A stretch of DNA of 27,556 nucleotides, from the NCBI GenBank assembly GCA_964411255.1, contig CAYPKD010000004.1:178147-205702 (forward strand). Reading direction: 5' to 3'. The position numbers were made by a program, and so were the translations under genes. Source of the stretch: an uncultured Gammaproteobacteria bacterium. GTDB taxonomy: Bacteria; Patescibacteriota; Patescibacteriia; UBA11705; DATKZF01. Under the pieces are notes generated by a model. That model was not told where the DNA came from. It ran no database searches and worked only from the letters and a program-made list of their open reading frames with translations. This document shows, one piece after another, positions 1,564 to 20,851 of this stretch (the first letter of the stretch is position 1; every line of letters starts with the position of its first letter).

Positions 1564-2790
1564 TTAAATGTCTCTTTTATAAATATTAAATTTTAATCCA
1601 TCTTCTGCTATAATCAAATCATAAAATTTAAATTTTAAATTTTTCAAAACCTGCATTGAAGCTTTATTTTCAACATTTCTGAGACAAACTGCACCCCATA
1701 TTTTAGTATATTTTGTATCAATTAAATCATTTATTAGCCTTTGGAAAAGAGTTTGTCCTATTCTTTGATTCTGATAATTTATATCAACTGCTATTTGCTC
1801 AGCATAAATCAAAGGCCTTTGCTGATCTAAAATATATTTAGTAATATCATCTGAAATATTTAGTTTTTCAATAAAATCATCTGTAAATGCGGATAAAAAT
1901 CCAATTACCTCACCTGCTTTTTCAGCAACATAAAAGTACGGATTATCTTTAATATATTCTTCGTATCTTCGCATTGGCGGTACTTCGAATTCAACAAATC
2001 CTTTTGCTTTTTGCGAAGAGCGTCTAATATTATAATCCATAGTCAATTGTCTAACAATTTCCGCATCTTTAATCTGTGCTTTTCTAATCAAAACATCAGG
2101 ATGGCTGTTCCATTTAAACTTATCCATTACTTTTATAACTCCATACATAAACGGTGTATCAATGGCTGCAATTATAACTTTTACCACCCATTGTCCTAAA
2201 ATCAAGGGCCAAATCGGAAAAATACCATAAAAAGCAATAACAACAAAAATTACTGAATCAAGCAACTGGCTGACAATAGTTGACGCATTATTTCTTAGCC
2301 AAAGATGTTTGCCCTTGGTTAATTTTTTCAAAAAATGAAATGCCCAGACATCATGATGCTGGCTGATTAAATAAGCTATAAATCCAGCAACTGCGATTCG
2401 AGGTGTTAAACTTAAAACTTCTTTAAATTTATCAGCCAATTCAATTGCATAAGGTGCAGGCTTCCAGTACATTGCAATATATAAGGATAAAATAAAAATT
2501 AAATTTGCATAAAATCCTGTCCAAACCGCACGCCGGGCTGCCCTTTTCCCCCATTTTTCAGATAAAATATCAGTGATTAAAAATGTCATGGAAAAGGCAA
2601 TCACGCCTGCAGGCACTGTAAATGGGCCAAAACTTACTATTTTAACGGCCAAAACATTAGCAATCACCACTAAAGCAGCCATAATAGCAATGGGATAAAA
2701 AACTCCGTATTTTTTTCCTAAAATACCTGCAAATGATGCAACCACTAAAGTTACAATAATCCAAATTAAAATCAATATTATTTCTGGCAT
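1564..2790 (-). CDS. Fusion protein: N-terminal YhhQ/DUF165 (VUT-family queuosine-precursor transporter-like) membrane domain plus C-terminal GNAT N-acetyltransferase domain
   Basis: The N-terminal 230 aa are polytopic, with the YhhQ-like signature FSMTFLITDILSEKWGK (compare the FPLTFLxTDxINE core of that family). The C-terminal 170 aa have the GNAT fold pattern (VIGFLSAFTDD...IAVDINYQNQRIGQTLFQRLI...), whose Q/RxxGxG/A acetyl-CoA motif is QRIGQTL. Confidence 0.7.
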   Translation of the reverse strand: MPEIILILIWIIVTLVVASFAGILGKKYGVFYPIAIMAALVVIANVLAVKIVSFGPFTVPAGVIAFSMTFLITDILSEKWGKRAARRAVWTGFYANLIFILSLYIAMYWKPAPYAIELADKFKEVLSLTPRIAVAGFIAYLISQHHDVWAFHFLKKLTKGKHLWLRNNASTIVSQLLDSVIFVVIAFYGIFPIWPLILGQWVVKVIIAAIDTPFMYGVIKVMDKFKWNSHPDVLIRKAQIKDAEIVRQLTMDYNIRRSSQKAKGFVEFEVPPMRRYEEYIKDNPYFYVAEKAGEVIGFLSAFTDDFIEKLNISDDITKYILDQQRPLIYAEQIAVDINYQNQRIGQTLFQRLINDLIDTKYTKIWGAVCLRNVENKASMQVLKNLKFKFYDLIIAEDGLKFNIYKRDI

Positions 2791-6390: not shown

Positions 6391-7077
6391 CTAAAGCTTT
6401 TTCATTTCATAAATCTGATATTCATTATCAACAAAACTTTCTATTGCCAAAGGAGTTCTTATGCTCTTTATTAAAATTATTTCATATCCATATTGTCTTG
6501 CTATATCCTTAATAGCATCTAAATCAGCGAAATTCCCAGTACCTAAAAGCAATCGGCCATTTTTTTTCAAAAACTTTTCAGCGTCTTTGATATATTTTTC
6601 TAAACCCTGATAATTATAATCAAAACCTGCTTGCAGTAAAATCTCCTCATCAGGATTATCTCCTTTATTAAATGGGTGATTCCAGAAAATAAAATCAAAT
6701 TTCTCATCTCTGGGCAAAGGCTCATACATGTTGCCTTCATAAACTGGAATATCCAAATTCAATTTTTCAAAATTCAGTCTTGCATTTTGAACTGCAACCG
6801 GATTTATGTCTGTAGCTGAAACTTTTGCGCCTTTTAATGCAGCAAACACTGCAATAATTCCAATCCCAGTACCAATCTCTAACATTTTTTTATTGCCAAC
6901 AATTTTGGGCACTTCTTTTGCGAACCAAACGCTATCAGTAAAATATTTTGGTGAAAAAACATTTGGCAATATCGTAAACTCAATTCCTTCAACTTCAATA
7001 TTATAAGGTTTATCATGCTTTTTAATCTGCTCAAAAACCTCTCGCACCTCCTTTTCCCATTGCTGTTTTGTTACCAT
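6391..7077 (-). CDS. Class I SAM-dependent methyltransferase (MTS/HemK-PrmC-like small-domain MTase)
   Basis: The SAM-binding motif is LEIGTGIGIIAV, the acidic loop is SATDIN, and the catalytic motif FWNHPF resembles NPPY/DPPY. The start is placed at the Met at 7077, because the upstream Met at 7137 would overlap the preceding MazG gene by 59 nt. ATG 7077 is 1 nt from the MazG stop at 7079. Confidence 0.65.
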   Translation of the reverse strand: MVTKQQWEKEVREVFEQIKKHDKPYNIEVEGIEFTILPNVFSPKYFTDSVWFAKEVPKIVGNKKMLEIGTGIGIIAVFAALKGAKVSATDINPVAVQNARLNFEKLNLDIPVYEGNMYEPLPRDEKFDFIFWNHPFNKGDNPDEEILLQAGFDYNYQGLEKYIKDAEKFLKKNGRLLLGTGNFADLDAIKDIARQYGYEIILIKSIRTPLAIESFVDNEYQIYEMKKL

Positions 7078-7078
7078 A

Positions 7079-7396
7079 TTATAAATGCTTTTCATTAAGC
7101 TGTTCCCAATCCCAATTTCTGTCCTTATTAATCTCAATTTTATTCAAAATTTCCTTTTCCGCATCAACTTCAAAAACTCCGCATAAATGTAAAATACGAA
7201 TTAATGCATCAGCTAATTCTTCTTTAAATCCATGTGGGCCTTCAATTTGTTTTTTGCGATAAGCTTCATAAGCTTCAGCTATTTCAGTGTGAATCAAAGC
7301 AATCTTTTCCGGCACATTAACTTTATCTTTATCAGTTACCCAACCCTTTTCATCAGCCAGTTTTAAAATTTCTTCAGTTAATTTATTTATTTCCAT
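7079..7396 (-). CDS. MazG-like NTP pyrophosphohydrolase (105 aa)
   Basis: It has IALIHTEIAEAYEA and EELADALIRILHLC plus NKDR, the same architecture as the 4673 paralog. Confidence 0.65.
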   Translation of the reverse strand: MEINKLTEEILKLADEKGWVTDKDKVNVPEKIALIHTEIAEAYEAYRKKQIEGPHGFKEELADALIRILHLCGVFEVDAEKEILNKIEINKDRNWDWEQLNEKHL

Positions 7397-7397
7397 A

Positions 7398-7658
7398 TTA
7401 TTTAAAAGAAATTATTTGATAACCATATTTTTCAATATCTTCTTTAGACCAAAATTTCAAATCCTTTGTCTTCAAAACATAAGTAACTTGTTTTTCGATT
7501 TCTCTGCCTGTATATTCTTTTGTTTTTGGATCCCATTCTTTTAAAACCAAGTCATCGCCGGAATTGCATTCAAAGTCAGCTAATCGCAATTCAAATGTTT
7601 TATCACCATCAATAATTTTTTGAAAATATTTTGGCCAGACTTTTTTTTCAATATTCAT
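7398..7658 (-). CDS. ASCH/PUA-like small beta-barrel protein (DUF3850-like), 86 aa
   Basis: It contains the KTFELRLADFECNSGDDLVLKEW pattern typical of ASCH-like domains. This is weaker than the enzyme calls. Confidence 0.45.
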   Translation of the reverse strand: MNIEKKVWPKYFQKIIDGDKTFELRLADFECNSGDDLVLKEWDPKTKEYTGREIEKQVTYVLKTKDLKFWSKEDIEKYGYQIISFK

Positions 7659-7663
7659 ATAAA

Positions 7664-8074
7664 TTATTTAATTTTTTGGATATCCCCATTTAATATTATT
7701 GGCTTTGTATGTAAAATTTCCTGGGTATAACGTAACACCTGTTTTTCAGGTGGTGTATAAAGCAAAAATGTTTTTTTCTTCAAATAATATGCTAATCCAA
7801 TCTCAATTAAAGTTGCTCCACCAATATACCCTTTCATTCCATTCTTTGGATGATTCAATACTAAAAAAATATCGCTATCTTCCAGCTTCATCATTGAATC
7901 ACGCATAATATCCATAGATTCTGTATGATCAGGATCCATATTTAATTCTGGATTTTCCACGCATTGTTCTGTATCAGCAGGAACCAATACCTCAAATCCC
8001 ATTTCCTCTAATTTTTTCTGAGTCTCAAGCATCTCTTTTGCAAAATGCATTGAACCGCCAATATAAATTTTCAT
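7664..8074 (-). CDS. Protein of the nucleoside 2-deoxyribosyltransferase / DNPH1(Rcl)-like family (dNMP N-glycosidase-like)
   Basis: An N-terminal MKIYIGGSM resembles YxxGxxR/M. The core SDIFLVLNHPKNGMKGYIGGATLIEIGLAYYLKKKTFLL fits the (A/S)DxxVAxL...S.GTxxExGxA...GKPV pattern of that superfamily. Confidence 0.6.
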   Translation of the reverse strand: MKIYIGGSMHFAKEMLETQKKLEEMGFEVLVPADTEQCVENPELNMDPDHTESMDIMRDSMMKLEDSDIFLVLNHPKNGMKGYIGGATLIEIGLAYYLKKKTFLLYTPPEKQVLRYTQEILHTKPIILNGDIQKIK

Positions 8075-8075
8075 A

Positions 8076-8393
8076 TTAGTTTGTTTTATCTATCTTCGCT
8101 TCCAAATCATCCATCACTTGCCAAAATTTATTTTCCAAATCAACATCAGTTTTATTGGCTAAAACCATAACGCTCCACAATACATCAACCAATTCATGTT
8201 CCAGTGCCTCTTTCACGTCTTTATCAAGATTTCGATAATTACCACGGGCCATTAATATCTTTGATAAATCTCCCACATCTTTTACCATACCCATAAAAAC
8301 CTGGTCAGTTCCCCACTTTGTGGGTTCAATTTTTTCATATTTTGCTTTAATTTCAACAGCTCGTTCAGTCATTTTGTTAAAATCATTTTTCAA
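8076..8393 (-). CDS. MazG-like NTP pyrophosphohydrolase (105 aa), third paralog
   Basis: It has VKDVGDLSKILMA and EALEHELVDVLWSVMVLA, the two-helix MazG-like signature. Confidence 0.6.
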   Translation of the reverse strand: MKNDFNKMTERAVEIKAKYEKIEPTKWGTDQVFMGMVKDVGDLSKILMARGNYRNLDKDVKEALEHELVDVLWSVMVLANKTDVDLENKFWQVMDDLEAKIDKTN

Positions 8394-8406: not shown

Positions 8407-8445
8407 CAGCGAATTTTTAACATCAATTGTTAGAAAAATTCGCTG
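8407..8445. repeat. 12-bp perfect inverted repeat CAGCGAATTTTT-N15-AAAAATTCGCTG with a palindromic loop, lying between two minus-strand genes
   Basis: The arms are at 8407-8418 and 8434-8445. The loop AACATCAATTGTTAG is itself palindromic, and no U-tract follows on either strand. Confidence 0.55.
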
Positions 8446-11061: not shown

Positions 11062-11268
11062 TTATACCTTTTGTTTTGGCACTATAAAAATCAAATATAA
11101 ACTAACTACCCAAAGACCAAGGCTTATATAAAGCACAAAATTTGGCATTACATACCAATTTGAAAAATACGCAATTACTTTTGCTGCAATGCCCAGCAAT
11201 GATATAATTAATAAAATTTTTCCAGCTAAGTTGAAATTTACAGGCACTAAACCTGGAGGATATTTCAT
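11062..11268 (-). CDS. Possible small membrane protein (68 aa) starting at the internal Met of the track ORF 11062-11436
   Basis: The track ORF runs through the tRNA gene and so cannot be real upstream of about 11330. The C-terminal 68 codons (MKYPPGLVPVNF...) are hydrophobic and may be real. Confidence 0.3.
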   Translation of the reverse strand: MKYPPGLVPVNFNLAGKILLIISLLGIAAKVIAYFSNWYVMPNFVLYISLGLWVVSLYLIFIVPKQKV

Positions 11269-11331
11269 ACGATTTAATGGTTCAATCTTCGCAAAACCTT
11301 CTGGCCTGCCAGCCGAAGCTTCAGCGAAGGC

Positions 11332-11418
11332 TGGCGGAGAGGACAGGATTTGAACCTGCAAGTCCACAAGGGACGCACGCTTTCCAAGCGTGTGCCTTAC
11401 CATTCGGCGCACCTCTCC
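11332..11418 (-). tRNA. tRNA-Ser (anticodon GGA), class II with a long variable arm and an encoded 3' CCA
   Basis: The reverse complement reads GGAGAGG-TG-CGCC-GAATGGTAA-GGC-A-CACGC-TTGGAAA-GCGTG-CGTCCCTTGTGGACTTG-CAGGTTCAAATCCTG-TCCTCTCC-G-CCA. The anticodon loop is U33-GGA-A37, the D-stem is 3 bp and the variable arm is long (GTCC-CTTGT-GGAC), both typical of tRNA-Ser. Confidence 0.9.
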
Positions 11419-11510
11419 TCTTTCTCCTTCAACCACTCGCCTGCTCTGTACCGAACGCTAGTTCTGGTGCGGGGGCCATCTCTCCCTTAACGAACGAGTT
11501 TAATGAAAAT

Positions 11511-11675: not shown

Positions 11676-12548
11676 ATGGCTCAAGTTGATATGCACATAC
11701 ATTCGCATTTTTCAGATGGATCAGATTCTCCTACTCAAATCGTTCAAAAAGCAAAATCACTTGGATTAAAAGCAATTTGTCTGACTGACCATGACAATTA
11801 TGAAGGCTTGCCAGAATTCGTTCAGGCTTGCAGGGAACATAATATGAATTTTCTTTGCGGTATTGAAATAATGACATTTTTTCAGGGAATAAAGATTGAA
11901 ATACTGGCTTATGGCATTGATTTGCCCAGAGATGAAAAGTTAAAAGACATACTTTCTAAAAATTGGAAAGCTCATAATTTAAAAGTTCAAAAAATGCTTA
12001 ATGGATATTCTGAACATGGAATTTTTACTGCCACAGTAAACGATATTAAAAGAGCAATGGATTATAAAGGACCGTTTGCCACCAAGGCTTGGCTACGGGA
12101 ATTTAGAGTTCAGGAATTTGATGTTGAGAAAAAGCAAGCCAAACAAGAAACTGCCAAAAATGGTGTGGCTTATGCGCCATACGATCAAGATAAATTCATT
12201 ACTCCAGAAGAAGTGTTTGATTTTGTTCATGCGCTCGGCTGGAGAGCAGTTTTAGCTCATGGCGGAGTTATCAGCAAAGAAATACCTGAGTTTCAAAAGT
12301 GGACAGATTTTATTAAACTTCTTGTTTTGCAATTAAAACCGCTTGGTTTATTCGGAGTTGAAGCATATCACTACCGAAATGAAAAACAATATACTGAATT
12401 TCTTGTTCAAATGGCCCGAGAGCATGGCTTGGCAATAACTGGCGGATCTGATTATCATGGCAGATTTCAATCAAGGCAAATCGGGCAATTTGCAATCAGT
12501 TATGAAAATTTTTTGCAATTTAAAGAGCTAATAAACATAACCGCGTAA
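11676..12548 (+). CDS. PHP-domain phosphoesterase (TrpH/YciV-like; 3',5'-nucleoside bisphosphate phosphatase / RNase AM family), paralog 1
   Basis: The N-terminus MHIHSHFSDGSDSPTQIVQKAKSLGLKAICLTDHDN carries the PHP motif I HxH and motif II DHD. Later metal-ligand histidines are LAHGG and GGSDYHG. Confidence 0.8.
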   Translation: MAQVDMHIHSHFSDGSDSPTQIVQKAKSLGLKAICLTDHDNYEGLPEFVQACREHNMNFLCGIEIMTFFQGIKIEILAYGIDLPRDEKLKDILSKNWKAHNLKVQKMLNGYSEHGIFTATVNDIKRAMDYKGPFATKAWLREFRVQEFDVEKKQAKQETAKNGVAYAPYDQDKFITPEEVFDFVHALGWRAVLAHGGVISKEIPEFQKWTDFIKLLVLQLKPLGLFGVEAYHYRNEKQYTEFLVQMAREHGLAITGGSDYHGRFQSRQIGQFAISYENFLQFKELINITA

Positions 12549-12563
12549 TTCGTGGTTTTTTTT
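12539..12563 (+). terminator. Intrinsic terminator after PHP paralog 1
   Basis: The hairpin AACCGCG-TAATT-CGTGGTT (7 bp including one G:U) overlaps the stop codon and is followed by TTTTTTTT. Confidence 0.6.
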
Positions 12564-12570
12564 AATATTC

Positions 12571-12599
12571 TTGACTTTTTCCCTATAAAAGCCTAAACT
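12571..12599 (+). promoter_or_regulatory. Candidate promoter for PHP paralog 2: TTGACT at 12571-12576, weak -10 TAAACT at 12594-12599 after a 17-nt spacer
   Basis: Same -35 hexamer as the paralog 1 promoter. The -10 is imperfect. The SD AACAGGGGGAAAAAATG is at 12623-12639. Confidence 0.4.
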
Positions 12600-12636
12600 T
12601 TTATAACATATATGTTCTTTCAAACAGGGGGAAAAA

Positions 12637-13530
12637 ATGCCTTTTGAAGCTGATATGCATAGCCATTCATACTATTCTGATGGTTATAATTCTCCAGCTG
12701 AATTAGTCAAAACAGCAAAATCCCAAGGGTTAAAGGCAATTTGTCTGACAGATCATGATAATTTTAACGGCATACATGAATTTATCAGAGCCTGCAAATT
12801 AGCACGACTTGATTTCATCCATGCAATTGAGCTGACAACTACCTATAAAGGTGTAATCGTTCATATATTAGGCTATGGATTAGATCTGAATAATCACACT
12901 CTTAATAAAGTGGTCTTTTCTCAATGGTATGTTCATAACCTCAGAATGACTCAAATATTGAGAAAATATAGAAAAAAAAAGGTTATGGATGTTTCATTGG
13001 ATAATTTAAAAAGGTCAGTCCAATGCAAAGGCCCTTGTATGTTTGACACTTGGCTAATAGATTTTCGCATGAGAATGGCTGAAATTTCTTTTGAACAAGC
13101 AAAAAATGAAATTAGCGGTAATGGATTTGTTAATACTGAATATGATAGTGAATTATTACTCACTGCCCCTCAGGCAGTAGATCTAATTGATAATGCTGGA
13201 GGATTAGCAGTGATTGCTCATCCTGGTGAAATAAGAAGAAGGCTTGAAAACAGAGGGATTCACGTAAATTGGAATAATTTCATTCAATTATGTATTTCCA
13301 TTCTTGAAAACCAGGGTTTAGCTGGAATAGAAGTGTCTCATCCCAGAAATGATGATGAACAAACTGAATTTTTAACCCATCTGGCAGATCAACGAGGATT
13401 AATAAAATTTGGCGGGTCTGATTATCATGGAAAATTTAAATCATATCTTCCTGGTCAATGCGGCATTAGTTATAAAGCTTTTCAGCAGATTAAAGCCAAA
13501 ATTATTAAAAAAAGACCGCGAAAATCGTGA
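12637..13530 (+). CDS. PHP-domain phosphoesterase (TrpH/YciV-like), paralog 2
   Basis: MHSHSYYSDGYNSPAELVKTAKSQGLKAICLTDHDN is collinear with paralog 1, as are IAHPGE and GGSDYHG. Paralog 2 has a basic C-terminal tail, KKRPRKS. Confidence 0.8.
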   Translation: MPFEADMHSHSYYSDGYNSPAELVKTAKSQGLKAICLTDHDNFNGIHEFIRACKLARLDFIHAIELTTTYKGVIVHILGYGLDLNNHTLNKVVFSQWYVHNLRMTQILRKYRKKKVMDVSLDNLKRSVQCKGPCMFDTWLIDFRMRMAEISFEQAKNEISGNGFVNTEYDSELLLTAPQAVDLIDNAGGLAVIAHPGEIRRRLENRGIHVNWNNFIQLCISILENQGLAGIEVSHPRNDDEQTEFLTHLADQRGLIKFGGSDYHGKFKSYLPGQCGISYKAFQQIKAKIIKKRPRKS

Positions 13531-15317: not shown

Positions 15318-15404
15318 ACTATTTAGGTTAATAATAAGTAAATAAACTTTACCATAAATACGTTAAAAAATAAAGTCCCACCAACGATGCTAACGGTTTA
15401 TATC

Positions 15405-15745
15405 TTGCCAGTTTCTCGCGAGAAACTGGACGAGTTCTGTAGTTTTTTATCAACGCTTCTACTGGTTTATAGCATCGGGGTCTGGGGGGCTCATTGCCCA
15501 TGGTAAGATATAAAAACGTAATTATCGCTTCGCATTTGAGCCCCCCAGAGCTTTTTGCTTACTTTTTGGTTACAAAAAGTAAGTCGGCGCCTGCCCTGAG
15601 CGAAGTCGAAGGGTAAGCCGAAATTGGAAAGAGTTATCGCAATCCCAAAAAAGCTGCGTTATAAAACAAGGTAAACAGCTGTCAGCCAAAATCTCAGTGA
15701 ATAATAGCACATCCCAGCTGACGCCGGATTTTTTTCTTTAAATCA
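15405..15745. ncRNA. Candidate structured non-coding RNA or long structured leader. It has several long perfect stems and I could not assign it to a known family.
   Basis: Stem S0 is CCAGTTTCTCG/CGAGAAACTGG (15409-15430, 11 bp). Stem S1 is TCTGGGGGGCTCA at 15481-15493 paired with TGAGCCCCCCAGA at 15537-15549 (13 bp, enclosing 43 nt). Stem S2 is CTTACTTTTT-GGTTAC-AAAAAGTAAG (15558-15583, 10 bp). Local GC is elevated and there is no ORF longer than 40 aa. I did not recognise the conserved tmRNA, RNase P, SRP or 6S blocks. Confidence 0.3.
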
Positions 15746-15773
15746 AAAAAGACGCTTTCAAAGCGCCTTTTTA
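15744..15773. terminator. Bidirectional intrinsic terminator (A-run, hairpin, T-run) downstream of the DsbA-like gene and at the end of the structured region
   Basis: The sequence is CAAAAAA-GACGCTTTCAAAGCGCC-TTTTT, with a 5-7-bp stem. Confidence 0.55.
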
Positions 15774-15788
15774 TATATAAAATAATTT

Positions 15789-16628: not shown

Positions 16629-18128
16629 CTAATGACCAATTTTAAATATCTCAACTTTATTTGTTGCCATTACACCAAGCTTTATCCGATCATCAGATGA
16701 AGCATAAAGAGTAAATAATTTCTCACCTTTCTTTATCCTTTGACCAAAAAACGCATGCAAATGAACTCCCGCAAGCTTATCGCTTGGCGCACCAAGGTTC
16801 ATGCAAATTTCTTTAATTGCCTTGTTGTCAACAAAATTAATTTTACCCGTTTTTTTAGCATGAATTTCATATCTTTTAGCGCCAGAAGTGAAATCTTCTG
16901 AATGCTGGTCAGCTTTTCCGCCTTGCGCGATTACAATTTCATTCATTTTATCCCAGGCAGCGCCTGAAGTTAATTGCCGCATGGCAATTTTTCTGCCCTG
17001 ACCTTTTTTTGCAAACCCTTTTAATTCTAATAATTCACCTGCTAGTTTTACTGATTTTCTTTCTAAATCAAGCGGACGAAGCTCATGCCTTTGCAAAACT
17101 CTGAATACATCCCGAGCTTCCAGCGCTGGGCCAATTCCTCTGCCCAGCGGCTCTACGGCCTTTGTTTTCACTGCTTTTACCTTCATACCAAACCTTTTTC
17201 CCAAAGCAATGAATTTCTTCTCGATCATATTTGCTTTTGCCATATCAGGCACTTTGGTTGTCGGTCCGACCGGAATGTCAATAATTAAATAATCAACACC
17301 GGTCGCCACTTTTTTAGCTAAAATACTAACAATCATTTTATCATACGGCTCAAGAGCCAATGGTTTTGAAACTTTTATAATCTTATCATCAGCTGGAGCA
17401 AGGCTTAGTCCCCCGCCCCAAACCAGACAGCCATGTGTCTTTTTTACAATTTTTTTAATCTCATCCATTGAAAATGATACTGGGCAAATTACTTCCATTG
17501 TGTCTGCTGTACCTGCCGGAGATGTAATTGCTCTGGATGAAGTCTTTGGGATATATAGCCCGAGCGAAGCGATAATTGGAATAATTAACGGCGTAATTCT
17601 ATTACCTGACAGGCCGCCGACTGAATGCTTATCTACAGCTTTAACATTCAGGTTCATTTTCTCACCAGTTTCAGCCATTGCTTTTGCCACGTAATAGAGC
17701 TCGTCAAGCGAATAATCTTTTACAAAACTGGAGGCAGCATAATAAGTGGTTTCAACCGAACCTAGCACTCCGTCAACAATATCTTTAATAACCGCATAAA
17801 TTTCTTTGTATGTTACTGGTTTTCCCATTAACTTTTTATTTATTGTCTGAATAGAAAGTGGCCGGCTCATAATGCTGGCTTCAACAATATCGCCTGATTC
17901 TACTTGCACTTTTTTCCATACTTCCTTGAACAAGCCTAATTCTCCAGGTCGAACCTTTGTATTTGTCGTATCAGCGGTAACGATCGCTTTTTTATTTTTA
18001 CTCCAAATCAAATTCAACCTGTCTCCAGGATAAATTCCATAGCTTTCCGCTTCATCTTCATTTAAAACAGCGATCATTTTATCGCCTGTTGAAAAATCCA
18101 ATTTTTTGCATTTTAAATAAAACGCCAT
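16629..18128 (-). CDS. AMP phosphorylase (thymidine-phosphorylase family II enzyme with an N-terminal extension)
   Basis: At 499 aa it is longer than a classical TP. It has glycosyltransferase-family-3 core motifs (SVGGLSGNRITP, TSSRAITSPAGTADT) and a C-terminal alpha/beta domain, and it sits next to RuBisCO and the R15P isomerase. Confidence 0.8.
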   Translation of the reverse strand: MAFYLKCKKLDFSTGDKMIAVLNEDEAESYGIYPGDRLNLIWSKNKKAIVTADTTNTKVRPGELGLFKEVWKKVQVESGDIVEASIMSRPLSIQTINKKLMGKPVTYKEIYAVIKDIVDGVLGSVETTYYAASSFVKDYSLDELYYVAKAMAETGEKMNLNVKAVDKHSVGGLSGNRITPLIIPIIASLGLYIPKTSSRAITSPAGTADTMEVICPVSFSMDEIKKIVKKTHGCLVWGGGLSLAPADDKIIKVSKPLALEPYDKMIVSILAKKVATGVDYLIIDIPVGPTTKVPDMAKANMIEKKFIALGKRFGMKVKAVKTKAVEPLGRGIGPALEARDVFRVLQRHELRPLDLERKSVKLAGELLELKGFAKKGQGRKIAMRQLTSGAAWDKMNEIVIAQGGKADQHSEDFTSGAKRYEIHAKKTGKINFVDNKAIKEICMNLGAPSDKLAGVHLHAFFGQRIKKGEKLFTLYASSDDRIKLGVMATNKVEIFKIGH

Positions 18129-18140
18129 ATAGTATTTATA

Positions 18141-19406
18141 TTATTTTTTCCAAAACTGTAAAGCCCTTGCCAATTCTTCATGATCTTCTGAATATTCTTT
18201 TAATTTTACTCCACGCTCAATGGCTTGCACTGCCTGGCGGCAAGCCCTGGCGCCGGCAACTGAACCGTCTGGATGGCCGTGAATACCAGCGCCAAAATTG
18301 GCGATTAGATTTATTCCGAGTATTTCAACCAATTTAGGCAAAAGCCCTGGATGCAAACCACCAGAAGCAATTGGCAAAACCGGTTTAATTTTACTCCAAT
18401 CCTCTTTGACAATATTGTGGCTTTTCCAGTCTTCCTTCATCAATTGATTTACTGTTAAAACATCTTCCCGATCGCCCTCCATTTTACCAACTACTGTTCC
18501 AGTATGCAATTGGTCAACTCCGGCCAGTCTGGCTAATTTTGCAATAACCAGCATACTCATCCCATGTTTTTTATTTCTGGTAAATAATGCGTGTCCTGCC
18601 CGGTGGCCATGAATTATTAATCCTAAATTTTTCTTTCGTAAATATTGTACATTATCTAAACCAGTTGAAACGATATCAACCATCACGCATTTTCCACCCA
18701 ATTTTTTCACTAATTTTGCCCGTTCAAGCATTTGTTCAGGCGGTGCAGTAATATTACAGGCATATACTTTTTTCTGTTTTGTTTCTTTTTCAACTTTTTT
18801 CTTCCAATACAAAACCTTTTTCACTCTGTCTGCAAAACGGTTAAAGCTCATGTTAGTTAAATTCTCATCGTCTTTAACCAAATCAATGCCATTCAGCCAT
18901 ACAGCAGCTGACAATTTTGCCTGCTGGGCCGCAGTTAAACCTACTTTTGGTTTTATAATACTTCCTAAAATCACTCTGCCTTTTATTTTTAAAATCTTTC
19001 GGATGCCGTCAATGCCAAATGCCGGCCCCTTAAAACTGGCGCTGTATTTCACTGGAAATTCAATATCTTCCCATCTTAAATTTTTTATTAACTTCATACC
19101 GTAAATATTGCCTCCAATGCTTGATAAAAGTTGAGGAATACTGCCCCTTTCAAATAAATCTAAAGGATAAGCAACTTTTATTATCTTTTTCTTTTCATTT
19201 GCAAAAAAGACTCTGGCCTTTAATTTTTCTGCTAATTTGGGGTTCAGTGTCTGTAATTCTGTCCATGATCCAATAGAACTCTCCCCAGCAACTGCATCAG
19301 CTGCTTCCTGAAAGCTGACTCCTCTTGGCTCAACATAAAAAGTAGCGATAATTTCCTTATCCTTTTTTGGCTTGTATCCAATTTCAACAAATTTTACTAC
19401 TGACAT
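18141..19406 (-). CDS. rbcL: RuBisCO large subunit, short form II/III-like (421 aa)
   Basis: The motifs GIDLVKDDENL (GxDFxKDDE), IIKPKVGL (KPKLGL), IHGHRAGHA (HxHRAxH) and ASGGLHPG are present. No small subunit is present. Confidence 0.85.
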   Translation of the reverse strand: MSVVKFVEIGYKPKKDKEIIATFYVEPRGVSFQEAADAVAGESSIGSWTELQTLNPKLAEKLKARVFFANEKKKIIKVAYPLDLFERGSIPQLLSSIGGNIYGMKLIKNLRWEDIEFPVKYSASFKGPAFGIDGIRKILKIKGRVILGSIIKPKVGLTAAQQAKLSAAVWLNGIDLVKDDENLTNMSFNRFADRVKKVLYWKKKVEKETKQKKVYACNITAPPEQMLERAKLVKKLGGKCVMVDIVSTGLDNVQYLRKKNLGLIIHGHRAGHALFTRNKKHGMSMLVIAKLARLAGVDQLHTGTVVGKMEGDREDVLTVNQLMKEDWKSHNIVKEDWSKIKPVLPIASGGLHPGLLPKLVEILGINLIANFGAGIHGHPDGSVAGARACRQAVQAIERGVKLKEYSEDHEELARALQFWKK

Positions 19407-19410
19407 AACA

Positions 19411-19502
19411 TTGATAGTTACGAAGTTATGATGTTATGAAGTTACGTTGTTATTTAAAATATATATAACGTCGTAACTTAGTAACCTCGTAACATCATAA
19501 CG
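19411..19502. repeat. Imperfect palindrome of about 90 bp built from heptamer units (AGTTAYG on the left, CGTAACT-type on the right) around an AT-rich centre, lying between the HAD-like gene stop and the RuBisCO start
   Basis: The sequence is TTGATAGTTACGAAGTTATGATGTTATGAAGTTACGTTGTTAT-TTAAAATATATAT-AACGTCGTAACTTAGTAACCTCGTAACATCATAACG. Confidence 0.6.
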
Positions 19503-19914
19503 ATTTTATTAGTTTTACAATTTTTTCAATATCATCTAAGGCGAAGTCAACTTCATCTGTTTCATTATTTTTACTAAACAAAACTGTTTTAATTCCTACT
19601 TGTTTTGCTGGAAGCAAATTGCTAATAAGATCATCAATCATTAAACATTCTTCTGGTTTTATATTCAAATCATTTATAAATTTTTGATATGTATTTGCAT
19701 CTGTTTTACTTTGGCCTGATTCAGCGCAGGCAATGATAGGATCAAGCCCTAACTGATTTCCAATCTCTTTCACTGTGTTTGGAGATAAATTACTAATGGT
19801 TGCATTAATAATCCCTTTTGCTTTTAACTGTTCAACAATATCCTTGGCTTTAGGGTCAATCTGGCCATTTTTATAAACCACGCCATATAAATCCCAAATA
19901 ATTGCTTTAATCAT
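19495..19914 (-). CDS. Small HAD-like hydrolase domain protein (139 aa; a possible phosphatase)
   Basis: IIWDLYGVV sits at the motif-I position (DxDGx-like, with the second Asp replaced), and MIDDLISNL sits at the motif-IV position. It is short for a HAD enzyme, so the assignment is tentative. Confidence 0.45.
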   Translation of the reverse strand: MIKAIIWDLYGVVYKNGQIDPKAKDIVEQLKAKGIINATISNLSPNTVKEIGNQLGLDPIIACAESGQSKTDANTYQKFINDLNIKPEECLMIDDLISNLLPAKQVGIKTVLFSKNNETDEVDFALDDIEKIVKLIKSL

Positions 19915-20851
19915 ATTTTTTTTTCAAAAACTTATACTTCTTTGTCGTTTTCTTTGAAATATATTTTGGTTTTAATATTCCCAATTCTGTAATAAAACCT
20001 GTGATAAACCTGGCAGGAATAATATCAAATGCATAATTTATAATTTCCAATCCCTTTGGCGCTCTGGACCAAATTTCATTTGCTTTTCTTTGTTCAATTT
20101 CTAAATTTTTCAAATGTTTAGTTTCAATATCAAGCTTTAATGCCTGAGTTGCTATATATACTGGAATTTTTGCTTCACGCGCTGCTAAGGCCAGGCCTAA
20201 AGATCCTATCTTATTAACTGCATCACCGTCCAAAGTAATTGCATCACAGCCTAAAATTAATAAATCCATATCATATCCTTTGCTATACTGGCTGACAAAA
20301 AACGGACCTGCGCTGTCAACCACTTGGGTATTTTTAATATTCATTTTTAATAATTCTTTTGAAGTCGTTCTGCCCTGAAATAATGGCCTGGTTTCATTAT
20401 TAAAAACATGGATTTTTTTTCTTTTCTTTTTGGCCGCTTCTAATATACTTATTGCGGTAGAGGAATGACAATGAGTAAAGATATTATCATTATTACTAAT
20501 CAATTTCTCACCATAATCTTTAATAATTCTTTTATTTGTCATTATTTCAAATAAAAAACTGTCAATTCCTCTTTTTATTAAAACTCTTAACTTTTTTATA
20601 TCTAAATCCTGATTTTTATCTAAATGATATGAAACAAATCGTACAGCATTTTCTGCCATTGGCTCTGTTTCTCTGGCCCTGCTCAAGTAATATCCAATTT
20701 TTTTCACTCTGCTGATTAATTGACGGGGAGTTTTCAGCCTTTTCTCCTGAGAAACTTTTTTTAAGGTATTTAAAACAGCTTCAGCTATATTGGTTGCCCC
20801 CTGAATTTCAATGTTAACGATTTTTTTATAAATTTGGTCGATGTAATTCAT
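19907..20851 (-). CDS. Ribose-1,5-bisphosphate isomerase (eIF-2B alpha/beta/delta-like e2b2 family)
   Basis: An e2b2/MtnA-fold signature (GATNIAEAVL ... ILGCDAITLDGDAVNKIGS) is present. Its stop overlaps the HAD-like start by 8 nt. Confidence 0.75.
   Translation of the reverse strand: MNYIDQIYKKIVNIEIQGATNIAEAVLNTLKKVSQEKRLKTPRQLISRVKKIGYYLSRARETEPMAENAVRFVSYHLDKNQDLDIKKLRVLIKRGIDSFLFEIMTNKRIIKDYGEKLISNNDNIFTHCHSSTAISILEAAKKKRKKIHVFNNETRPLFQGRTTSKELLKMNIKNTQVVDSAGPFFVSQYSKGYDMDLLILGCDAITLDGDAVNKIGSLGLALAAREAKIPVYIATQALKLDIETKHLKNLEIEQRKANEIWSRAPKGLEIINYAFDIIPARFITGFITELGILKPKYISKKTTKKYKFLKKKYD

Follow-up and report, generated by a model that had tools for sequence, protein, structure and literature searches.

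A lineage-specific run of MazG-like, NDT-like, ASCH and methyltransferase genes in a Patescibacteria genome

What does a compact run of five minus-strand genes in a Patescibacteria genome represent: the parts of one dedicated system, or a set of nucleotide-acting enzymes brought together in a single lineage? The run (8393-6391) lies in a 27,556-nt stretch of contig CAYPKD010000004.1 (referred to below as the window), which comes from the genome of an ultra-small bacterium of the candidate phyla radiation (CPR)/Patescibacteria type, and the same sequence is present in a Joint Genome Institute (JGI) metagenome contig and in three other assemblies. It consists of five co-directional open reading frames (ORFs) separated by spacers of 1, 5, 1 and 1 nt, which are predicted to encode, in order, a MazG-like pyrophosphatase acting on nucleoside triphosphates (NTPs; MazG1), a member of the nucleoside deoxyribosyltransferase (NDT) superfamily, an ASCH protein, a second MazG-like protein (MazG2) and an S-adenosylmethionine (SAM)-dependent methyltransferase (MTase). 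A first-pass annotation had described these ORFs and their junctions as we find them, and had read them as a dedicated five-gene module for non-canonical nucleotides. CPR bacteria and DPANN archaea are unable to produce their own nucleotides and live on scavenged nucleic acids, modified and damaged bases included; how this material is cleaned and recycled is poorly known, and the present locus defines no new conserved system. What has come together here is a patchwork peculiar to one lineage, set in a fluid island, and not a conserved five-component system, and the coupling that does recur in other genomes is that of an NTP pyrophosphatase with an NDT-like gene.

Conservation and packing of the five-gene set

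Three collections of loci were compared with the window: 80 species-level CPR and DPANN loci anchored on the NDT-like family, whose neighbours within 8 kb were searched with the window proteins and with hidden Markov models (HMMs) of their families; 44 metagenome loci anchored on the MTase; and 45 viral loci anchored on the ASCH or MazG2 families. Neither the full set nor any three of its families were found together in these collections (0/80, 0/44 and 0/45, respectively). NDT, MazG and ASCH genes were all absent from the 44 MTase-anchored loci, and no MazG gene that had been overlooked in the NDT or MTase loci emerged with the family HMMs of MazG1 and MazG2. When viral contigs were scanned with the single MazG2 and ASCH sequences, no relatives were obtained, and the 45 loci obtained by alignment-based scans never combined the families; the idea of a phage module was dropped on this count. 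The five-gene combination was found in this genome alone, and its relatives, at 60-88% identity, carry differing subsets. In L132 and L133, a MazG2 orthologue (88% identity) and then the MTase (72%) follow directly after the end of a HIT-like gene and a hairpin. L131 contains a flavodoxin, an ATP-grasp protein, the MTase (73%), a NUDIX protein and an orthologue of MazG3, the third MazG-like gene of the window; the flavodoxin orthologue lies upstream of the MTase, and the NUDIX and MazG3 orthologues come straight after it. The MTase belongs to a syntenic backbone, running from flavodoxin through the MTase to MazG3, which exists without MazG1, the NDT-like gene and ASCH. The closest NDT-like relative (68%, in L129) has no partners from the set and is flanked by the gene of a membrane protein and a hydrolase-like ORF, and the order in L046 is NDT-NDT-NUDIX-GIY-YIG-ASCH. 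In the literature, no description was found of a combination of MazG, NDT and ASCH, nor of NUDIX with NDT in CPR.

These results bear directly on the module proposed in the first-pass annotation. In a strict form of that reading, the five proteins would make, sanitise or recognise one modified nucleotide; the ASCH protein would read it and the MTase would introduce the modification. The domain composition does resemble that of nucleotide-modification cassettes, the genes are tightly spaced, and the MTase is neither PrmC nor RsmC (see below). However, neither the set nor any triple of it is conserved in the 80, 44 and 45 loci, close relatives have it split into different subsets, and no base-modifying enzyme, glycosyltransferase, kinase or polymerase partner is present. 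With a neighbourhood confined to one genome, the reading as a dedicated system is largely refuted, and we regard it as very improbable.

What does recur is found immediately upstream of the NDT-like gene. Among the 80 species, the density of NUDIX genes up to 1.5 kb from an NDT-family gene is 12 times that farther out in the same loci (16 vs 4, binomial p 3e-7), and when the 140 immediate neighbours of this gene are classified by Pfam, NUDIX ranks first (16), followed by HAD, HD and Maf. At least eight CPR/DPANN species have a small MutT/NudG/NudI-like NUDIX gene directly upstream of the NDT gene, either overlapping it or at a distance of 15 nt or less (a MutT-like NUDIX occupies this position in L013, L016, L043, L045, L057, L074, L078 and L081), and two loci, L074 and L081, carry MazG-NUDIX-NDT arrays. 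Tandem NDT paralogues are present in L015, L043, L046 and L057. In the window, MazG1 fills the slot that is taken elsewhere by the upstream NUDIX. Both NUDIX and MazG enzymes convert (deoxy)nucleoside triphosphates ((d)NTPs) to the corresponding monophosphates ((d)NMPs) and pyrophosphate (PPi). The only evolutionarily recurrent coupling is that of an NTP pyrophosphatase immediately upstream of an NDT-like gene.

The best explanation in our view, to which we give about an even chance, is that the run is an operon specific to this lineage, embedded in a fluid island of small genes for nucleotide house-cleaning and salvage and carried by a nucleotide-scavenging CPR host. Several observations weigh against it. 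Within 8 kb of the NDT family, a MazG-like gene occurs in 3/80 loci, ASCH in 2/80 and the MTase in 0/80, and the first two figures are close to what roughly 0.9 Mb of CPR and DPANN sequence would yield as background. Of the 23 same-strand junctions in the 20 kb around the run, 12 are 5 nt or shorter or overlapping, and a run of four such tight junctions has a probability of 0.34-0.59; the packing of the five genes is not above chance for the genome. Since tight spacing is the genome norm, co-translation is plausible yet gives no evidence of a shared pathway. The scan for promoter and terminator consensus sequences did no better than shuffled sequence, and the functions of all five families are here predicted from sequence and models.

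The same packing figures favour another explanation, in which five independent housekeeping enzymes with no shared pathway came to lie side by side through streamlined spacing, as do the restriction of the set to a single genome and the unrelated neighbours of the MTase in 16 other loci. We consider such fortuitous packing rather unlikely, because the adjacency of NTP pyrophosphatase and NDT recurs across CPR and DPANN far above local background, nucleotide-acting genes are unusually frequent in the region (three MazG, NDT, ASCH, a NUDIX and a HIT protein, all within 8 kb), and a unit made of hairpin, MazG2 and MTase is kept in a relative.

To return to the reading as a lineage-specific operon, the five genes are probably co-transcribed. 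The MazG1/NDT-like, ASCH/MazG2 and MazG2/MTase junctions are each TAA-t-ATG, and that between the NDT-like gene and ASCH is TAA-tttat-ATG. Homologues of MazG1 begin with MK.(D/S)F at the position equivalent to its TTG start (8393), and the MTase start (ATG 7077) fits the N-termini of most homologues; the JGI call for the MTase is an alternative upstream ATG at 7095, which gives a 17-nt overlap with MazG2. The 5' edge of the operon is marked by a hairpin with a perfect 12-bp stem (arms CAGCGAATTTTT and AAAAATTCGCTG) and a 15-nt loop containing CAATTG. It has a minimum free energy of -15.9 kcal/mol (z -4.8) and no U-tract after it. A homologous hairpin is found in L132 (86-126) and L133, just upstream of the MazG2 orthologue, and the stems of the window and of L132 differ by a compensatory change from A-T to G-C. 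The comparison suggests a conserved 5' element, which may serve as an operator, a 5' untranslated region structure or an atypical terminator. Downstream of the hairpin, MazG1-NDT-ASCH is present in this lineage and absent in that of L132. At the Rfam gathering threshold, the sole match in the window is a tRNA-Ser, and there is no riboswitch upstream of the operon.

The presence or absence of MazG1-NDT-ASCH relative to L132 could also be accounted for by a mobile-element or phage-derived cassette, involved in DNA hypermodification, anti-defence or defence, which was inserted between the backbone genes. Such an origin would agree with the PHROG matches of four of the five proteins, with the nearby GIY-YIG gene, and with the resemblance of MazG1 to an integron-cassette MazG. 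On the other hand, the G+C content of the operon (0.30-0.33) is the same as that of its flanks, neither an integrase nor flanking direct repeats are found, attC-like sites are missing between the genes, the viral contigs hold no close relatives and the 45 viral loci show no co-occurrence, and the families of the NDT-like protein and the MTase are chromosomal ones that occur widely in CPR and DPANN. The PADLOC search gave a generic MTase-domain match only (to mad2 of the MADS system, at 5e-22), with no other MADS component in the window and no multi-component defence system. We find a mobile cassette a most improbable origin. No known defence system (PADLOC) or RNA family (Rfam) accounts for the locus.

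The MazG-like proteins and the NDT-like enzyme

The assignment of both MazG-like proteins to the all-alpha NTP pyrophosphatases, made in the first-pass annotation, holds on the basis of PHROG and PDB matches and of the metal motifs. Neither protein reaches the threshold of the curated MazG profile, and both have intact E-x-x-E...E-x-x-D metal motifs. MazG1, for which a family of roughly 300 representative homologues was assembled, scores 20 bits on Pfam PF03819, below the 22-bit gathering score, and its PDB matches are the integron MazG 2Q73 (9e-4) and YpjD. Its motifs, D39-V-G-D42 and H66-E67-L-V-D70, are conserved in 28 homologues; the family pattern is D39-x-G-D/E and H66-E67-x-x-D70, in which D42 represents a conservative Asp for Glu. 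MazG2 has no Pfam match, but matches PHROG pyrophosphatase families at 3e-21, and the PDB entries nearest to it are 4QGP (3e-4), DCTPP1 and MazZ. Its motifs, E38-I-A-E41 and E59-E60-L-A-D63, are invariant or nearly so in 24 homologues. One 229-aa homologue of MazG1 (P0361) contains two tandem MazG1-like domains. An integron-cassette reading of the run, prompted by the likeness of MazG1 to the integron MazG, was rejected, as there are no attC-like repeats between the genes.

The NDT-like protein scores 33.9 bits on PF05014, against a gathering score of 28.8 (E 3.7e-8). A PDB sequence search with the NDT profile gave a marginal NDT match only (E 0.97), and a fold search was needed for this reason. 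The model has the flavodoxin-like three-layer fold found in NDTs, and its structural matches include DNPH1. The family is compact (131-145 aa), occurs in Patescibacteria, Woesearchaeota, Aenigmatarchaeota and Nanoarchaeia, and is characterised by the motifs CGSMxFAKEM, D68, N74 and GGxxLxE91xG. The catalytic Glu nucleophile to be expected from the first-pass assignment is present: in an alignment with the T. brucei NDT (2A0K), E91 falls on the catalytic Glu and D68 on the Asp. At least 90% of 34 family members keep E91, one member has Asp instead, and D68 is nearly invariant. Compared with the type I/II NDTs (PF05014; Lactobacillus, Desulfotalea, Trypanosoma), the NDT-like protein has 15-25% identity, and the Tyr at the start of strand 1 is not kept in its family. 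As far as the model goes, the fold accommodates both chemistries, that of a transferase and that of an NMP hydrolase. The NTP pyrophosphatase as genomic partner suggests phosphorylated substrates rather than nucleosides, and since the conserved partner makes (d)NMP, the NDT-like enzyme may act on this monophosphate product.

DNPH1 is the relevant comparison for such a substrate. Its 5'-phosphate site, formed by the loop GSIRGG and by serines of the loop SLGVGYE, is matched in part only: the CGSM consensus of the NDT-like family matches the CGS of DNPH1, while RGG is absent and the Ser before the Glu loop is replaced by Gly. DCTPP1 is the mammalian all-alpha MazG-type dNTP pyrophosphatase. DNPH1/Rcl is a 2'-deoxynucleoside 5'-phosphate N-hydrolase of mammalian nucleotide-pool sanitation (PMC10603095). 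The two together resemble the present pair in joining an all-alpha NTP pyrophosphatase with an NDT-fold, Glu-nucleophile enzyme. The two proposed steps, from (d)NTP to (d)NMP and from there to base and (deoxy)ribose 5-phosphate, would also be alike. In contrast, sequence identity is very low (14-18%), the mammalian genes are unlinked whereas those in the window are operonic, and the usual partner of this NDT family is NUDIX, not MazG. The N-glycosidases MilB, BlsM and BcmB, which act on cytidine monophosphate (CMP) or hydroxymethyl-CMP in nucleoside-antibiotic pathways, differ in two respects: no antibiotic biosynthetic genes are found near the NDT-like gene, and the protein belongs to a distinct CPR/DPANN family with motifs of its own (MxFAKEM; a helical insert at residues 35-66).

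A plausible core of the operon would consist of an NTP pyrophosphatase followed by an NMP N-glycosidase. MazG1 and/or MazG2 would split (d)NTPs that are non-canonical or in surplus into (d)NMP and PPi, and the NDT-like enzyme, in the manner of DNPH1, MilB and BcmB, would cleave the N-glycosidic bond of this monophosphate; the released base and (deoxy)ribose 5-phosphate could feed the pentose/RuBisCO route encoded 9 kb away. The ASCH protein would strip N4-acyl groups from cytosine nucleosides or nucleotides, or bind modified bases, enabling their salvage, and the MTase would be a neighbour by synteny that acts on some amine, not an obligate partner. A more far-reaching version can be put forward only tentatively, and we think it unlikely as a whole. 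According to it, the NDT-like family and its upstream (d)NTP pyrophosphatase (usually a MutT-like NUDIX, here MazG) would constitute an undescribed two-step route from scavenged or non-canonical (d)NTPs to base and (deoxy)ribose 5-phosphate, sanitising the pool and feeding the AMP-phosphorylase/RuBisCO carbon pathway of these ultra-small symbionts, with an ASCH N4-deacylase recruited in this lineage, through which modified cytidines of host RNA would enter as well. Should the NMP-glycosidase reading be true, pool sanitation would be linked to the nucleotide-sugar carbon pathway of these organisms. The uncharacterised CPR/DPANN branch of NDTs, coupled genomically to (d)NTP pyrophosphatases, is a candidate microbial counterpart of DCTPP1/DNPH1 sanitation.

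The ASCH protein and the methyltransferase

The ASCH protein matches PF12961 (DUF3850) with 69.8 bits against a gathering score of 22.9 (2e-19), and PF04266 with 26.8 against 21.2, which agrees with the ASCH/PUA-like barrel of the first-pass annotation; the role of a reader, which had been attached to it, fits less well, as the GxKxxExR motif favours a candidate amidohydrolase. The octapeptide G18-D-K20-T-F-E23-L-R25 is invariant in three close homologues and fits the catalytic GxKxxExR ("GKER") type, whose members deacetylate N4-acetylcytidine (ac4C); the general form, GxKxx(E/T)xR, holds the catalytic Lys and Glu/Thr of the ASCH ac4C amidohydrolases (bioRxiv 10.64898/2026.02.27.708502). For one such protein, EOLA1, a role of ac4C deacetylation in nucleotide salvage has been proposed. 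The window protein shares with the ac4C amidohydrolases YqfB, TthASCH and EOLA1 (PMC6972931; bioRxiv 10.64898/2026.02.27.708502; 10.64898/2026.08.01.741249) a small stand-alone ASCH barrel and the GxKxxExR motif including the catalytic Lys and Glu, but belongs to the DUF3850 branch (PF12961), apart from the assayed enzymes. Members of this branch are mostly associated with phages, and fusions to ParB-like domains are frequent among them (bioRxiv 10.1101/2025.10.10.680097). It is possible, judging from the octapeptide, that the ASCH protein is an N4-acylcytosine amidohydrolase rather than a passive reader.

The MTase matches PF05175 (MTS) at 4e-16 and has the sequence FWNHPF as motif IV, which is invariant in 34 homologues of a CPR/DPANN family. 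It had been described as an NPPY-like enzyme, which is correct as regards a SAM MTase with FWNHPF, while the motif itself is NHPF and not NPPY. All NCBIfam equivalog cut-offs are missed: the scores are 61 bits for PrmC (TIGR03534, cut-off 199.1), 67.5 bits for the archaeal HemK-related family (TIGR00537, cut-off 87) and 39.7 bits for RsmC (NF007023, cut-off 295). The nearest structures are those of GenN, Asc-Orf2 (a carbamoyl N-methyltransferase), PrmC, N6AMT1 and RsmC. With HemK/PrmC, N6AMT1, RsmC and GenN (PF05175), the protein shares the class I Rossmann fold and an (N/D)PP(Y/F)-type motif IV after strand 4. These enzymes provide its best sequence and structure matches, and the GVFSP-like N-terminal motif is a further likeness; the differences from them are the invariant N-H-P-F in place of NPPY and the NCBIfam scores far under the cut-offs. 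Orthology to PrmC or RsmC, which the first-pass annotation had considered as a reason for a fortuitous co-location, did not hold up against these scores and the NHPF motif, and the MTase is an orthologue of neither. An uncharacterised N-methyltransferase family with an invariant NHPF motif is thereby brought to light.

A different association is raised by a sister subfamily with the motif FWN[VT]PF, which is without the His. It adjoins a Vut_1/YhhQ-type transporter in L095 (386-1826) and is part of a Vut_1-QueF-MTase-Vut_1 cluster in L100 (6038-9216; the same in L101), and a link of this subfamily to 7-deazaguanine (preQ) salvage is possible. The MTase of the window could likewise have its function in 7-deazaguanine (preQ0/preQ1/queuine) salvage, apart from the MazG and NDT genes, in keeping with the gene for a Vut_1-GNAT fusion that follows 3.6 kb farther down on its strand and with the small-molecule N-methyltransferases among the nearest structures. 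We judge this improbable, given that only two independent loci point to it, both of the sister subfamily lacking the His, that most MTase loci have unrelated neighbours, and that in the nearest relatives the partner of the MTase is either MazG2 or NUDIX together with MazG3.

The surrounding island

The coordinates of the run and of its neighbours are listed in Table 1. Within 8 kb on the same strand, the upstream genes encode a HIT hydrolase, a GIY-YIG protein, the flavodoxin and the RibD_C reductase, and the downstream genes an HD-GYP protein, MazG3, the MutT-like NUDIX, the Vut_1-GNAT fusion and an SNase nuclease. Farther away, the co-directional array that holds the AMP-phosphorylase-like, RuBisCO and isomerase genes also contains a gene for a HAD hydrolase. 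AMP phosphorylase, ribose-1,5-bisphosphate isomerase and RuBisCO make up a nucleotide-sugar catabolic pathway typical of CPR and DPANN. The general theme of nucleotide processing, as opposed to the five-gene module, fits these surroundings well, with a third MazG, NUDIX, HIT, a nuclease and the AMP phosphorylase/RuBisCO pathway.

Table 1. Location of the five genes, the hairpin and neighbouring features in the window (functions as predicted)
Feature	Position	Strand	Description
MazG1	8076..8393	-	all-alpha MazG-like NTP pyrophosphohydrolase, 105 aa, TTG start
NDT-like	7664..8074	-	NDT superfamily, 136 aa; candidate (d)NMP N-glycosidase or nucleoside deoxyribosyltransferase
ASCH	7398..7658	-	ASCH/DUF3850 PUA-like protein, 86 aa
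MazG2	7079..7396	-	all-alpha MazG-like NTP pyrophosphohydrolase, 105 aa
MTase	6391..7077	-	class I SAM-dependent N-methyltransferase, MTS/HemK-like type, 228 aa
Hairpin/palindrome	8407..8445	-	between RibD_C stop codon and MazG1 start
Flavodoxin	9633-9145	-	directly upstream context
RibD_C-type reductase	9142-8450	-	upstream, parted from MazG1 by the hairpin
MazG3	4978-4673	-	third MazG-like gene; downstream, house-cleaning island
MutT-like NUDIX	3424-2996	-	downstream, house-cleaning island
Vut_1-GNAT fusion	1564-2790	-	downstream of the MTase
AMP-phosphorylase-like gene	16629-18128		co-directional array 16629-20851
Form II/III RuBisCO	18141-19406		same array
Ribose-1,5-bisphosphate isomerase	19907-20851		same array

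A few further features of the window were recorded. The tRNA-Ser(GGA) lies at 11332-11418 on the minus strand, and the 124-aa ORF that overlaps it (11062-11436) is probably spurious. Two adjacent paralogous PHP-domain proteins of 290 and 297 aa are encoded at 11676-13530 on the plus strand, opposite to the surrounding array. A perfect 13-bp inverted repeat at 15481-15549 (TCTGGGGGGCTCA / TGAGCCCCCCAGA, with the arms 43 nt apart) is located in a 470-nt intergenic region (15318-15788) that is richer in G+C and has no Rfam match. Between the RuBisCO and HAD genes, a 43-nt imperfect inverted repeat composed of GTTAYGA-like units is found at 19414-19504.

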